32,847 bases of DNA from Candidatus Poribacteria bacterium (GCA_027296925.1 JAPUIP010000675.1:1-32847), one strand, 5' to 3'. Shown: positions 9,577-29,464, numbered from the stretch's first letter. The notes: generated by a model not told the origin, from the sequence alone. Program-made: numbers and translations.

Positions 9577-9593
9577 AGCAATATGTATGCCAA
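9577..9593 (-). promoter_or_regulatory. Sigma54 (-24/-12) promoter candidate for the giant surface protein gene
   Basis: Minus strand TTGGCATACATATTGCT: exact GG-N10-GC spacing, near consensus TGGCAC-N5-TTGCW, intergenic and oriented towards the gene. Confidence 0.7.
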
Positions 9594-24977: not shown

Positions 24978-25538
24978 TTATACAGTATACCTTCCGAGGG
25001 TCTCCTCATCGAGATCCTCTAACCCGCCTTTAGAGGGCTGTTTTTCTGCATTCTTTAGCTCGGTTTCAGGAAACCCAGTTTCTTGAATTATCTGCTCTGC
25101 GACATAAATCGGTGCCTCAAATCTCAATGCAAGGGCAATTGCGTCGCTGGAGCGGGCATCAATCTCTAGCGTTTTGCCATTCGCTTGTAAATTGATTTGT
25201 CCAAGATAGGTTGAATCGGTCAGGGAATGCACAAAGACTGTCTCAACTGTGGCACCAAGATTTTCGATGATATTTTTCATCAGATCATGCGTCATTGGAC
25301 GCGGTGGCGGCGGTTCGCCCTTGAGTTTCCACTGAATCGCGGTAGCCTCTCCAGGTCCAATCCATATTGGTACAATATATTTCGGATCACCAGCTTTCTC
25401 TTTCAAAAAGAGAATCGGTGTGCCAGTACTGGCATCAACAGAGATAAACGCCACGTCAACCTCGATCATGTTCTGTTCTCTGGTCTGATGGCGGTCATCG
25501 GCTTCAGCGGCCTTTTTGATCTTCTTTGGATCTTTCAT
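24978..25538 (-). CDS. Bifunctional nuclease family protein (DUF151/DNase-RNase)
   Basis: PILFLKE...VPIWIGPGEATAI...PRPMTHDLM...IDARSSDAIALALR; start set at ATG 25538 after AAGGAG. Confidence 0.92.
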   Translation of the reverse strand: MKDPKKIKKAAEADDRHQTREQNMIEVDVAFISVDASTGTPILFLKEKAGDPKYIVPIWIGPGEATAIQWKLKGEPPPPRPMTHDLMKNIIENLGATVETVFVHSLTDSTYLGQINLQANGKTLEIDARSSDAIALALRFEAPIYVAEQIIQETGFPETELKNAEKQPSKGGLEDLDEETLGRYTV

Positions 25539-25607
25539 CTGAGGACTCCTTATTGACTCACTTGGGATTTGAGTGTCAATTGGGTTCGCCGATGACACGA
25601 TGAATGC

Positions 25608-25624
25608 TACAAGAATGTTGCCAA
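25608..25624 (-). promoter_or_regulatory. Sigma54-like promoter (TTGTA -12 variant) for nuclease-pspA-small TM gene
   Basis: TTGGCAACATTCTTGTA, 70 bp upstream of ATG 25538; the same pattern recurs at 26241 and 28411. Confidence 0.6.
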
Positions 25625-25721
25625 TCATCTTGCTATCGACAAACCCAAATTGCTTCGGAAGTTTCCGTTAATAAATAACAAGCACCGACGTGCCACGGCT
25701 CCTGGACTTTACTAGGCCCAT

Positions 25722-26194
25722 CTATGATGCCTCGGTGCCAGTGGTTTCCGGGGACTTCGTTTCGGCAGTCAGATCTAAGCCATGAACGAGGTCACTCACA
25801 GTCTTGACGAGTTTCTGCGGCTCGACATCCGCAAAATTCAGAATCTCTTTCAACACTGGTACGGCTGCACCGGCACCCAGGATCGAGCGAAGGATCTTGC
25901 CGACTCCGCCGCCTGACGCGCCATTCCCCCCACCATTTCCACCGAGGTCAAGGACCCGTATACTTTCGATGCGTTCCGCAGGCTTCATCAATTGACCTGT
26001 GACTTCGGGGAGTGCCTGAATGAGTGACAATATCGCTTCATTGGTCAGGACTTTCTGATCGGCTGAGTTCTTCGCTTCGATCAGCGCCTCTTCACCCTCG
26101 GCCTTCGCTAGGCTTTATAAGTCACAATCAGGATGACCACCATCGCAGCAATTGCGCCGATGATCATTCCGAAAAGGTTTGTACTGGCACCCAT
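25722..26194 (-). pseudogene. Flotillin/YqiK-like SPFH gene with a large internal deletion and frameshift
   Basis: SD AAGGAGA and ATG 26194 encode only a TM anchor (MGASTNLFGMIIGAIAAMVVILIVTYKA*, stop 26108-26110). Another frame then gives a flotillin-like C-terminus LAKAEGEEALIEAKN...LIQALPEVTGQLMKPAERIESIRVLD. Directly downstream of a yqiJ-like gene. Confidence 0.78.
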
Positions 26195-26240
26195 TTCACA
26201 TCTCCTTCGTAAAAAGGATACGCGGATTAATAACCAATGG

Positions 26241-26257
26241 TACAATAGACTTGCCAA
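26241..26257 (-). promoter_or_regulatory. Sigma54-like promoter (TTGTA -12 variant) upstream of the flotillin gene
   Basis: TTGGCAAGTCTATTGTA, 47 bp upstream of ATG 26194. Confidence 0.6.
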
Positions 26258-26329
26258 CACAGGGTTTAATGGATTGGCATCCCTCCTTATTTCGGCCAGT
26301 TCTGGACAAAACGTGACTGACAGTCAGCC

Positions 26330-27031
26330 TCATGCATCGAAGGAACTATCCGCTTTTGTCACATCAAAGATTCGTGTCGTCGGATCGTAATCGATAAGGA
26401 TCACCGTGTCCCCTTTTAAGGGAATCTCCTCGCCCTCACGGATACGGCAACTGACGGTCAACTCGGGTCCATCGGGAACCTGGACACGCGCTGTCCCAAA
26501 GGTTGTTGTGACCCTGCCGCTAATTACCCGACCCGTTAGCCCGATCAGATCATAATTGGTGGTGGCACGTTCACTTTCGGGAAATAGCTTTGAAATTCCC
26601 AGGGCAAGGTAACGTGTTCCAAAAATACTACATAGAAACGCGGCAGCGAAAGGGATCCAGAGTACGGCTCGCGGGGAGTTAGGATCGATATTCAAAAAGT
26701 CATTAACAATCAAGCCCGAAATTCCCCAGATTGAAAAGAGAGCCATCAGGATAATCGTAAATGGAACTTTGCCAACGTTCAAAATTCCTAACACGCTGGA
26801 AACAAAGCCACCTCCCCCGGAACTGCTCTCCGCATCAACCTCAGCATCCGCGTCCACATCAACGTCAGCATCAACGTCCATATCGACATCAGTGTCCACA
26901 TCGACATCCCCACTCCCAAAATCTAAGCCGCCCATAACGAGTTGAAGAATGGCAAAGAGAAAAACGAAGGCAATCGGCGCTGTAAACCAAACATTGTACC
27001 AGGCAAAGATGTAATCAAAAAAACCGCCCAT
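26330..27031 (-). CDS. YqiJ/NfeD-like membrane protein with C-terminal OB fold (DUF1449-like)
   Basis: N-terminal TM, DVDVD acidic linker, LNVGKVPFTIIL TM pair, DLIGLTGRV...KGDTVILIDYD OB fold; SD GGAGGG; upstream of the flotillin remnant. Confidence 0.85.
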   Translation of the reverse strand: MGGFFDYIFAWYNVWFTAPIAFVFLFAILQLVMGGLDFGSGDVDVDTDVDMDVDADVDVDADAEVDAESSSGGGGFVSSVLGILNVGKVPFTIILMALFSIWGISGLIVNDFLNIDPNSPRAVLWIPFAAAFLCSIFGTRYLALGISKLFPESERATTNYDLIGLTGRVISGRVTTTFGTARVQVPDGPELTVSCRIREGEEIPLKGDTVILIDYDPTTRIFDVTKADSSFDA

Positions 27032-27048
27032 ATCGACTTCCCTCCAGC

Positions 27049-27264
27049 CTAGTCAAGCCGTTGCACTTTGTACAGATGGGTTTGGGGTTCATAATCCCAA
27101 AGGACCACCCTTTCCCCCTGCTTTACACTTCCGCCCTCCACGTCAACACTGCAATATATCGTCCTGCGGAAAGGGCGGCCTTCAATCTGTGCGATGCCAA
27201 AATCGGTGTTGACTTCACGACTTGTGATCTTTGCAACGGCGCCGACGAGATCTGAACGGCGCAA
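27049..27264 (-). pseudogene. C-terminal OB-fold fragment of a second NfeD/YqiJ-like gene
   Basis: SDLVGAVAKITS..VNTDFGIAQI...KQGERVVLWDYEP aligns by eye with the C-terminus of 26330..27031; no SD or TM region; overlaps the PH gene out of frame. Confidence 0.68.
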
Positions 27265-27634
27265 TTTGCGAAAAAATCAACTCAAGCGCGCGTTGAGCTT
27301 CGCGGCGGTTGATATTGTTGATTAGATACTTATCGCCATTGACTTGAATCTCAAGGTAAGCTTGCCCAAATACACGGTGTTTGAAACTTCGGTCAAGTTT
27401 GGCGGACTTGATCTGAGAAAATGGGAGATTACACCGAATGTTGATGTAGGAAGCACTGAGGCTACCCATCTGGCGCTCATCCAACACCAACACCCGGTCG
27501 GAAGTGATAATGATGAAGTCGGGACTCAGGAGTTCGGATCTCCCAAGCATGCACAATTGAACTTGCTCATTCGCAGTCAGTTGGGCTTGAACTGTTTCTT
27601 GAACTCAAGATGGCAGGCGATGAAACTCAGCCAC
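27215..27634 (-). pseudogene. Bacterial PH-domain protein gene with an in-frame TGA at codon 10 and an aberrant 3' end
   Basis: GTG 27634, 6 nt after the upstream pspA-paralogue stop, reads VAEFHRLPS*VQETVQAQLTANEQVQLCMLGR...IIITSDRVLVLD (bPH-like). TGA at 27605-27607; the tail APFRSRRRRCKDHKS is out-of-frame NfeD sequence. Confidence 0.62.
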
Positions 27635-27640
27635 CTTACA

Positions 27641-28339
27641 TCACCCCGTTGAAGTTGAGCTTTCTGAATCCTCAGCCGCGACTTTTGCTTTCAACGCCGC
27701 AAGATCTGCCTCAACCGTCTCTTTACGCTCAAGCTCGTGAAATTTCTGCTCAAGGTCATCGCCTTGCGTCAACTCAGCTAACGCCTCCGCATGAGCTTCC
27801 AGATCACGGACACGCTCTATCATCCGGTCGTAGGCATCGAATGTACTTGTATCAATCACCACATCCGCCGGTGGCGATGAGCTCACAGCCGGCCGAGACG
27901 ATTCCACACTTTCAGTCACAACGAATTTTGCGGTGCGATAGCGCATCGAATCTAGCTGAGTTTCCAACGTCTTCAAACTTGACTTGAGCGAATCGATTGT
28001 TTCCTGCTGTGTTGCAGTCTGCTCTCGATATTGGTCAGCTCTCTTGATATGCTCACATTTGCGGGCGAGCGCCCGGCGAGCGAGCTCTTCTTCCCCTTTT
28101 TTCAGGGCGAAAACCGCTTTTTCTTCCCACCTTTGCGCTTCCCTGCCATGTTCGTCAATCTCGCGCTCTAGCAGCTTGAGGTCGGTGATTGCACCCGCGA
28201 TGAGAGATTTGACATTACGGATGTTCTGGCGCATCTCTTCGAGCATCAGGCCGCGCGTTTTGCGCGTATCTTCCGCCTTTGTGAGAAGGTCGCTCACATG
28301 CGATCTGATAATGAGCTTGGCTCGGTTTAGTGTTTGCAT
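27641..28339 (-). CDS. Second, divergent PspA/IM30 family protein
   Basis: ATG 28339 after AAGGAGAG; WEEKAVFALKKGEEELARRAL, TFDAYDRMIERV, VEADLAALK. The longer ORF-track start runs into tmRNA and is rejected. Confidence 0.9.
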   Translation of the reverse strand: MQTLNRAKLIIRSHVSDLLTKAEDTRKTRGLMLEEMRQNIRNVKSLIAGAITDLKLLEREIDEHGREAQRWEEKAVFALKKGEEELARRALARKCEHIKRADQYREQTATQQETIDSLKSSLKTLETQLDSMRYRTAKFVVTESVESSRPAVSSSPPADVVIDTSTFDAYDRMIERVRDLEAHAEALAELTQGDDLEQKFHELERKETVEADLAALKAKVAAEDSESSTSTG

Positions 28340-28410
28340 TGTTCTGTCTCTCCTTGTAACTTTGATCTGAATCAAATGGGTAATAGGCCCAAACGAACAT
28401 GTGAAAAAGT

Positions 28411-28426
28411 TACAAGGATTTTGCCA
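28411..28426 (-). promoter_or_regulatory. Sigma54-like promoter (TTGTA -12 variant) upstream of the second pspA
   Basis: TGGCAAAATCCTTGTA, 72 bp upstream of ATG 28339. Confidence 0.6.
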
Positions 28427-28501
28427 TTTGGGAAGGTTGAGCCAGAGGGAGCGTATGTAATGTGCAGCGGCCGGGGGGAGAAATACAAATTGTAAAAATA
28501 A

Positions 28502-28855
28502 TGGAGGTGGCGGGAATTGAACCCGCGTCCAAGAGCATTTCAACAAAGGCTACTACATGCTTGTCACAAGTTTTAAGTTTCGCCCACAAGACTCCCTTAT
28601 GCCAGATTCGCTGTGGACTATCTCAAGTGAAGTCTCGCGGCCTGTCCCTTGAGAACAAACAGACCACATAGCCCGTTTTTTGTCGCCCGACTAATCCGAC
28701 GGGCCGCAAATTAGTCAGACGAGCTGCTCTTAAGCAGCTAGTGCTAATTCTTCGTAATCAGCAATTATGATTTTTCCGCCTGTTTAACGAGGCCTGCGGA
28801 GACCTCGGCATGCAACCTTTATCTCATCTACTCCTGTCGAAACCTTTTCACCCCC
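28502..28855 (-). ncRNA. ssrA: tmRNA; tag peptide (A)ADYEELALAA
   Basis: 5' GGGGGTG pairs with 3' CACCTCC-A with a G3-U wobble; T-arm GCGGGTTCAATTCCCGC; tag ORF 28762-28730 after ATAATT; adjacent to smpB; CCA not encoded. Confidence 0.96.
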
Positions 28856-28961: not shown

Positions 28962-29426
28962 CTACCTCAGATATGATCGAATCGCGCGTTGATCTGCCGC
29001 TTTCCTGAGATCGTCGCGCTTATCATACGCCTGTTTGCCGCGTGCGACGGCGATTTCGACTTTTACTTTGCCGTCGCTGAAGTAGGCTTTCGTTGGGACA
29101 ATTGTCATGCCATCAGAGCGGGTTGTCGCTTCGATTTTCCGAATTTCCCTACGATTCAGCAGCAACTTCCGTTTTCGCTTTGGCTCATGGTTCTCGCGAT
29201 TCCCGTGCTCGTACGGACCAATATGCGCATCGATCAAAAAAACTTCGCCATTCTCGACACGCGCGTAGCTATCTGTCAGATTGAGTCTGCCAGTGCGGAT
29301 CGCCTTGACTTCTGTCCCTTGAAGAACAAGCCCAGCTTCGTAACGATCCAGCAGGTGATAATCATATCGCGCTTTCTTATTGATGGCAGCCGTTTTGGTC
29401 TGTGCAGCAGGCTTGGCACCTTTCAT
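28962..29426 (-). CDS. smpB: SsrA-binding protein SmpB
   Basis: NKKARYDY...EAGLVLQGTEVKAIR...RKRKLLL...GKQAYDKR. Confidence 0.97.
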   Translation of the reverse strand: MKGAKPAAQTKTAAINKKARYDYHLLDRYEAGLVLQGTEVKAIRTGRLNLTDSYARVENGEVFLIDAHIGPYEHGNRENHEPKRKRKLLLNRREIRKIEATTRSDGMTIVPTKAYFSDGKVKVEIAVARGKQAYDKRDDLRKAADQRAIRSYLR

Positions 29427-29435
29427 AGCGGATGA

Positions 29436-29464
29436 ATTATAGCACAAACGCGAAAGTGACGCAA
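29436..29464 (-). promoter_or_regulatory. Sigma70 promoter of smpB (leaderless or near-leaderless transcript)
   Basis: TTGCGT-17 bp-TATAAT with extended TG; only 9 nt between the -10 box and the ATG, and no SD. Confidence 0.7.

Follow-up and report, generated by a model that had tools for sequence, protein, structure and literature searches.

How is a phage-shock protein (Psp)-type membrane-stress locus switched on in the uncultured phylum Poribacteria? In Enterobacteria, the control of PspA by sigma-54 has been elucidated, and for a few other lineages it has been predicted. Here, we analysed a 32,847-nucleotide stretch of DNA from Candidatus Poribacteria bacterium (GCA_027296925.1 JAPUIP010000675.1:1-32847), referred to below as the window, which carries two genes of the PspA/IM30 family, pspA1 and pspA2, on its minus strand. 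The window is contig C640 of a 907-contig assembly of 6,394,611 bases (52% G+C, 91% complete; genome G000), and its same-family relatives likewise bear the name Candidatus Poribacteria bacterium. An initial annotation had read three TGGCAA-N5-TTGTA sequences in this locus as promoters of a sigma-54/PspF-like regulon. We call them P1 (ahead of pspA1), P2 (ahead of a flotillin remnant), and P3 (ahead of a bifunctional-nuclease (BFN) gene that is followed by pspA2). As judged from sequence, P1 and P3, and less surely P2, are probably sigma-54 (RpoN) promoters of the locus. P2 is a perfect copy of the motif, of uncertain standing.

The three sites were found exactly where they had first been placed, all on the minus strand, as TGGCAAAATCCTTGTA (P1, 28426-28411), TTGGCAAGTCTATTGTA (P2, 26257-26241), and TTGGCAACATTCTTGTA (P3, 25624-25608). 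In each of them, as in the orthologous sites of relatives, GG is followed by exactly 10 nt and then by G, inside TGGCA and TTG blocks. The paralogous sites have in common only these two blocks and their spacing, and the 5-nt spacer between them varies. All three read GT instead of GC at -12, and the comparison site TGGCATACATATTGC (9578-9592, minus strand) carries the canonical GC, both as the initial annotation had observed. Its description of the sites as intergenic, on the coding strand, and upstream of an ATG equipped with a Shine-Dalgarno (SD) sequence also held. Between the end of the motif and the A of ATG lie 71 nt for P1 (ATG 28339), 46 nt for P2 (ATG 26194), and 69 nt for P3 (ATG 25538), and AAGGAG stands 8-11 nt before each of the three start codons. 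The intergenic status rests on gene starts common with orthologs; longer open reading frames (ORFs) able to cover P1 and P3 exist and receive no support from the orthologs. A sigma-70, sigma-32, or extracytoplasmic-function (ECF) sigma factor reading was rejected: the spacings are unfit by eye, and a consensus scan detected no sigma-70-like match in the three promoter gaps (4 found in the region versus 4.1 expected).

The motif is rare. TGGCAA-N5-TTGTA occurs 3 times in the window against a mean of 0.02 in dinucleotide shuffles, and none of the 100 shuffles reached 3. Genome-wide (6.39 Mb) it has 5 matches, versus 1 for the reversed pattern used as control, and 3 of the 5 are clustered in 2.8 kb at this locus. 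The remaining 2 lie on C413, where the match is apparently coding, and on C663, where no SD-like sequence follows downstream.

The conservation of the sites was then compared among relatives. PspA1 orthologs (56-80% identity) are present in 23 of the 40 relatives searched, and YGGCAA-N5-TTGTA precedes pspA1 in all 23 orthologous loci, which belong to two families (TGGCAA in 16, CGGCAA in 7). In 22 of them, 55-78 nt separate the site from the start codon; in the other (L048), the distance is approximately 427 nt, with an insertion in between. A distant locus with 51% PspA1 identity (L089) carries CGGCAACTTTCTTGTA as its P1 site. When 25 P1 sequences were aligned, the sole conserved block between the 3' end of the transfer-messenger RNA (tmRNA) gene and the ribosome-binding site was AA-YGGCAA-N-AT-Y-CTTGTA; the flanks diverge on either side while the core stays. 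As a separate observation, the loci of genus g5 (L035-L047 and L080) carry 2-3 tandem copies of CACGTTTCA approximately 10-60 nt upstream of P1, which may represent a genus-specific regulator site and are absent from the window.

At P3, the exact motif is present in 11 of 14 loci, the window counted. In G002, the corresponding position reads TGGCAATATACTTGCA, with canonical TTGCA, so that T and C interchange there as expected of a -12 element. The core is absent from two loci of family f3, where a sigma-70-like TTGACA is seen by eye instead. Several blocks flanking P3 are kept across genera (approximately 25633-25646, 25587-25594, and 25569-25579, minus strand). They include GGTTTGTCGATAG just upstream of the core, where conserved GGnTTGTCGATG stands approximately 10 nt from it, CATCGGCG at the predicted start, and a TTGA-N3-TCAA palindrome in the leader; these blocks may be regulator sites. 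P2 is perfect in G000 only: the homologous place in G006 reads CGGTAAGTCTACTGTA, and G004 (genus g5) has a 37-nt YqiJ-flotillin gap with no P2 site. A metagenome scan with the P2 16-mer returned at least 119 stretches; none of the 80 that were fetched is similar to window positions 25501-27100 (blastn, E 1e-5), so we regard these matches as chance.

The same data bear on the view that the sites are functionless, either chance matches or relics of a duplicated promoter-like segment. Its support comes from P2, which is confined to G000 and sits before a broken gene, and from genome-wide counts of the degenerate pattern in relatives, which are only about twice the control. It is contradicted by the three sites in a window where 0.02 are expected, and by P1 and P3, which stay unchanged amid diverging flanks, P1 across two families. 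We therefore consider it very improbable.

G000 encodes two further PspA paralogs, of the PspA3 and PspA4 types. The PspA3 type has TGGCAA-N5-TTGCA upstream in 15 of 15 loci; in G000 this promoter is TGGCAAATCCCTTGCA (C63:18549-18564), of sigma-54 type with GC. The PspA4 type is preceded, by eye, by a sigma-70-like TTGGCA-N17-TATAAT in 11 of 12 loci. Sigma-54-type cores with a common TGGCAA thus precede three of the four PspA paralogs, and the -12 base in these cores alternates between T and C. Among the relatives, psp promoters of the TGGCAA type occur in genera g1-g5, g7, and g11, and none was seen in g6. In the G000 PspA4 locus, the sigma-70-type site lies at C191:6784-6818, and a CesT_Tir-like gene and then an M55 peptidase gene are located downstream.

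Does the genome possess the machinery that such promoters need? An rpoN gene is present on C903; its product is full length (567 aa), with a DNA-binding domain scoring 199 bits and with region I and the RpoN box visible. rpoN was found in 41 of 41 relatives searched. The sigma-54 activator domain PF00158 has 38 matches in G000, of which 30 are strong. The -12 base was counted in TGGCA-N6-TTGN matches using a crude ORF map with over-extended gene starts, as a result of which 2 of the 3 psp sites land in its "start zone" class. Of the 57 matches just upstream of ORFs, 38 have C at this position, 8 T, 8 A, and 3 G; the 187 matches inside same-strand genes comprise 48 with C, 36 with T, 62 with A, and 41 with G. 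Because C makes up 38 of 57 upstream but 48 of 187 intragenic matches, G000 clearly uses canonical sigma-54 promoters. The canonical form, taken from 38 sites, is TGGCA[T/C]-N5-TTGCT, with 21 T, 15 C, 1 A, and 1 G at position 6 and with T at position 16 in 21 sites. The psp sites resemble these promoters in their TGGCA and TTG blocks, their spacing, and their placement upstream of genes. They differ in having A at position 6, T rather than C at -12, and A rather than the usual T at -11, and thus form a distinct subclass.

These three departures would also be compatible with the motif being the site of another DNA-binding protein, such as a locus-specific regulator, another sigma factor, or an RpoN-like protein reduced to its DNA-binding domain. 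A protein of the last kind exists: C297:1598-2965 (L096) encodes 455 aa with a sigma-54 DNA-binding domain only (92 bits) and an RpoN-box-like ARRTVTYYR; neither the activator-interacting nor the core-binding domain is matched in it by Pfam. Such a protein could occupy -24-like elements. A second, weaker sigma-54 DNA-binding-domain match (86-101 bits) is present in 24 of 41 genomes, with the domain make-up known for G000 alone; it is found in 23 of the 24 genomes that have a pspA1 ortholog, and also in G020, where pspA1 is lacking and pspA3 has a promoter of the TGGCAA type. G003, genus g6, and families f2 and f4 do not have this match. The extra conserved blocks around P3, including the palindrome, likewise fit a dedicated regulator. 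On the other side, the motif shows neither dyad symmetry nor direct repeats, it has the conserved blocks and the spacing of a sigma-54 promoter, and TTGTA is replaced by canonical TTGCA in G002 at the P3 place and in all PspA3 loci. The co-occurrence of the second protein with psp promoters is clade-level and does not represent independent events. Since G003 keeps P1 and P3 and has no second RpoN-like gene, the idea of promoters specific to that second protein is weakened. The spacings of sigma-70, ECF, and sigma-32 promoters do not fit the sites, by eye and in the scan. We regard recognition by another protein as quite unlikely.

The P1 leader raises a further alternative, in which the motif acts in RNA: as part of a 5' leader transcribed from an upstream promoter, it would pair with the ribosome-binding site and control translation. 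Overlapping the -12 element of P1 is TCCTTGTAACTTT, whose reverse complement, AAAGTTACAAGGA, is found at the pspA1 ribosome-binding site; this gives a potential 13-bp stem (28345-28418, minus strand) between the -12 half of P1 and that site. If transcribed, the 106-nt P1 RNA would fold at -23.3 kcal/mol (z = -2.5), a stability matched by 3 of 200 shuffles. A 10-bp version of the stem pairs in 94% of cells across 25 orthologous leaders and is visible in L089, and only 72 nt lie between P1 and the end of the highly expressed tmRNA gene upstream on the same strand. However, the stem shows no compensatory changes, and column shuffles pair equally well (96.0% against 95.7%); it therefore has no covariation support. 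The P2, P3, and PspA3 leaders have no significant fold involving the motif (z = -1.15, -0.26, and -0.36, respectively), pairing leaves the invariant TGGCAA block unexplained, and Rfam detects the tmRNA only in this region. A sigma-54 start near 28400 would in addition exclude the 5' arm from the mRNA. Because the pairing is confined to P1, it cannot explain the common motif, and a role of the motif in RNA is highly unlikely. The stem might at most be a second use of P1 that silences read-through RNA from the tmRNA gene.

Taken as sigma-54 promoters, the sites would be expected to work as follows. RNA polymerase carrying sigma-54 would bind at two points, GG at -24 and the G within TTGTA at -12/-13, and would stay in a closed complex until an ATP-driven enhancer-binding activator opens it. 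Transcription would start approximately 12 nt past the T, near 28400, 26230, and 25597. The predicted transcription units are pspA1 with the bacterial PH-domain (bPH) gene and the NfeD/YqiJ gene, the flotillin remnant, and BFN-pspA2 with the gene of a 57-aa membrane protein. Terminator-like hairpins precede two of the sites (P2 and P3), which supports the promoter reading. According to the available text of PMC4551910, C occupies -12 in 96% of sigma-54 promoters and holds basal transcription in check. The T would probably weaken the repressive sigma-54 lock at -12, and a weakened lock would adjust how strongly a self-limiting PspA circuit is expressed, basally or upon induction. A bolder version holds that T at -12 is a functional need of PspA feedback circuits, kept or re-evolved in Proteobacteria and Poribacteria and selected for loosening the sigma-54 lock. 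The circuit in Poribacteria would operate without PspF, PspB, and PspC through an unrecognised activator, and the -12 half of P1 would double as an anti-Shine-Dalgarno arm silencing tmRNA read-through, so that only stress-initiated sigma-54 transcripts, which start downstream of the arm, are translated. This version is possible but, in our judgement, unlikely as a whole. Most likely, the locus adds a phylum to a known control scheme and involves no new mechanism.

Which activator would open these promoters? E. coli PspF has 30 matches in G000 (36-49% identity), none of them outstanding, and none of the 30 reaches the TIGR02974 cut-off for a PspF equivalog (best 301.7 versus 443.55 bits). Of the two genes for which the initial annotation had proposed a search, rpoN was found; for the other, a PspF-like bacterial enhancer-binding protein without a sensory domain, one activator has the architecture. 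This 327-aa protein, at C195:1310-2290, combines AAA+ and HTH_8 and has no sensor domain. Its orthologs (68-71% identity) occur only in G001 and G006, and the motif is also present in genus g5, G003, and genus g11, where these orthologs are absent; C195 therefore does not travel with the motif and was rejected as the psp activator. A short activator of G007 was set aside as well, being located among sugar-nucleotide genes. We also noted at C465:3-470 an activator without a classical sensor domain, which has a 43-aa SHOCT-like N-terminus and is cut by the contig end. PspB (PF06667) and PspC (PF04024) have no match in G000.

A wide regulon with this signature was ruled out. TGGCAA-N5-TTG[CT]A has 8 matches in G000, of which the 4 outside psp loci either lack a downstream SD-like sequence or are apparently coding. 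YGGCAA-N5-TTGTA has 4-26 matches per genome across 41 genomes versus 2-16 for the control, so no large regulon is indicated. In genus g11 (G032, G029, and G038), CGGCAAGGCTTTTGTA recurs at several places, with pattern counts of 13-26 against 6-7 in the control, and may mark a repeated element. For the proposal of a sigma-54/PspF-like regulon as a whole, the geometry, rpoN, the roughly 30 activators, the conservation of P1 and P3, and the GT stand, and PspF, a wider regulon, and the conservation of P2 do not.

Several observations weigh against sigma-54 control of the locus. At the level of the sites, the defining C at -12 is absent from all three, and A at position 6 of the -24 block is found in just 1 of 38 likely canonical G000 sites. 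P2 is unconserved in relatives and precedes a broken gene, and the BFN-pspA2 unit of family f3 stands behind the sigma-70-like TTGACA seen by eye. The conservation counts are not independent events, because the orthologs are related. As for the regulators, PspF, PspB, and PspC were not found in the 91% complete genome; among the activator genes listed for the closed genomes G003 and G004, none lies near the psp locus, and the window holds no activator gene. Alignment of 25 P1 and 12 P3 regions revealed no conserved enhancer block (upstream activating sequence) upstream, and just 72 nt separate the tmRNA gene from P1. Finally, the metatranscriptome contigs other than those of tmRNA are of low depth and carry neither start nor strand information, and DNA carry-over is possible.

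The genes of the locus are read from right to left on the minus strand (Table 1). PspA1 and PspA2 are 29% and 27% identical to E. coli PspA, respectively. The bPH gene encodes 122-139 aa in relatives, whose gene order backs its assignment. G001 and G006 have tandem YqiJ-like genes, and the 71-aa ORF is similar, by eye, to their C-terminal part. The 57-aa gene follows pspA2 in all 8 of the relatives' loci listed. Rfam gave nothing significant in the region besides the tmRNA. Like the sigma-70-like sites, the terminator-like hairpins come from a consensus scan only, which found 7 in the region versus 5.2 expected.

Table 1. Features of the Psp-type locus and its surroundings in the window
Feature	Position	Strand	Evidence and remarks
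smpB	28962-29447	-	
tmRNA	28499..28855	-	Rfam RF00023, 198.3 bits; 3' end 72 nt upstream of P1
P1, putative promoter	28411..28426	-	core TGGCAAAATCCTTGTA; GG at -24, GT at -12; predicted start ~28400
pspA1, PspA/IM30 family, 232 aa	27641..28339	-	Pfam PF04012, E 1e-33
bPH gene, 113 aa	27215..27556	-	Pfam bPH_3, 24.2 bits (cut-off 23)
71-aa ORF, apparent C-terminal remnant of a second NfeD/YqiJ-like gene	27049..27264	-	no Pfam match
YqiJ/NfeD-like membrane protein, 233 aa	26330..27031	-	Pfam YqiJ_N, E 1.9e-12
Terminator-like hairpin	26315..26329	-	directly after YqiJ stop, ~58 nt upstream of P2
P2, putative promoter	26241..26256	-	core TGGCAAGTCTATTGTA; predicted start ~26230; weakest of the three
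Flotillin remnant, N-terminal, 28 codons then stop	26108..26194	-	ortholog comparison
Flotillin remnant, C-terminal 102-aa ORF, other frame	25722..26030	-	Pfam Flot, E 7.4e-12, profile 48-120 of 124
Terminator-like hairpin	25681..25694	-	after flotillin remnant, ~57 nt upstream of P3
P3, putative promoter	25608..25623	-	core TGGCAACATTCTTGTA; predicted start ~25597
BFN gene, 186 aa	24978..25538	-	Pfam BFN_dom, E 4.3e-37; start set from orthologs
pspA2, PspA/IM30 family, 219 aa	24287..24946	-	Pfam PF04012, E 1.2e-47
Small hydrophobic gene, 57 aa	24070..24243	-	no Pfam match

Flotillin orthologs are full length in G004 (638 aa) and G006 (653 aa). In two RNA runs, 7-8% of sampled words were present; contigs cover 25272-25304, 25292-25512, 25753-25929, 25997-26216, and 26658-26932 of the locus, and the tmRNA is covered deeply. 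The 220-nt contig at 25997-26216 spans the ORF of the N-terminal flotillin remnant without a mismatch, so the broken form is probably real and not a mis-assembly. The flotillin leader contains a hairpin, TCCTT-tttacg-AAGGA (26203-26218, minus strand), which would mask the ribosome-binding site; G006 retains this hairpin, and G004 has a variant of it. Among relatives, including L066 and L068, the module of NfeD/YqiJ and flotillin genes that separates pspA1 from BFN has been deleted to different degrees: some lack it, some have fragments, and some have two tandem YqiJ genes plus flotillin, and the distance between the two pspA genes ranges from approximately 0.7 kb to 5 kb. Farther upstream, smpB contains TGGCATGACAATTGT (29098-29112, minus strand), which has sigma-54-like geometry and precedes the 5' end of tmRNA by approximately 240 nt. 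G003 and G001 retain this sequence as part of a coding region, and it is probably not a promoter.

Taken together, the same promoter class, with the rare GT, stands before two PspA operons of Poribacteria, and its GC version before a third. This suggests an older origin of the link between PspA and sigma-54, or a more frequent reinvention of it, than one would expect from PspF. What is most interesting in the finding is that GT recurs across phyla; there would then be a reason for the unusual base at -12. The sites also help to annotate transcription units in an uncultured phylum.

Our literature search for Poribacteria together with sigma-54 returned nothing relevant, and we found no description of this signature in the phylum. 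PspA beside band-7/flotillin proteins and with NfeD as a partner has been described in other phyla (PMC9239133; PMC11237479). Those neighbourhoods differ from the present one in that helix-turn-helix (HTH) regulators or none are assigned to them, and GT sigma-54 promoters are not reported in the available text of either paper; the main text of PMC11237479, as available, mentions neither "Poribacteria" nor "bifunctional nuclease". A sigma-54 phage-shock regulon has been predicted by comparative genomics in Desulfovibrio vulgaris, where, according to the accessible portion of the source, the activator DVU2989 lacks an N-terminal domain and is grouped with DVU2988-2986 (PMC4641369). The locus in Poribacteria resembles it as a sigma-54-linked psp operon outside Enterobacteria. 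The two differ in that an activator without a sensor domain is assigned to the D. vulgaris operon, whereas no activator in Poribacteria could be assigned from our searches.

The closest comparison is with E. coli. The available text of PMC9239133 describes PspF only in Enterobacteriaceae, and the locus in Poribacteria departs from the E. coli Psp system in having no PspF equivalog, no divergent activator gene by pspA, and no PspB or PspC found. The partners are bPH, NfeD/YqiJ, flotillin, BFN, and the 57-aa membrane protein, the upstream neighbour is tmRNA, and PspA identity is 27-29%. At the promoters, position 6 is A and not C or T as in the E. coli psp promoters. The likeness lies in the promoter architecture: a -24/-12 class promoter before a PspA-family gene, GG-N10-GT, and TTGTA. 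In NC_000913.3, the pspA promoter is TTGGCACGCAAATTGTATTAACAG (core TGGCACGCAAATTGTA) and the pspG promoter TGGCATGATTCTTGTAAT (core TGGCATGATTCTTGTA). Both are PspF-dependent, proven sigma-54 promoters. Both read TTGTA, which confirms what the initial annotation had stated for pspA and adds pspG, and GT at -12 is a published signature of proteobacterial psp promoters in the available text of PMC3041696. The regulon is very small in both organisms, with two promoters in E. coli according to the same text and three or four in G000, and the P3 core TGGCAACATTCTTGTA differs from the E. coli pspG core at just 2 of 16 positions.

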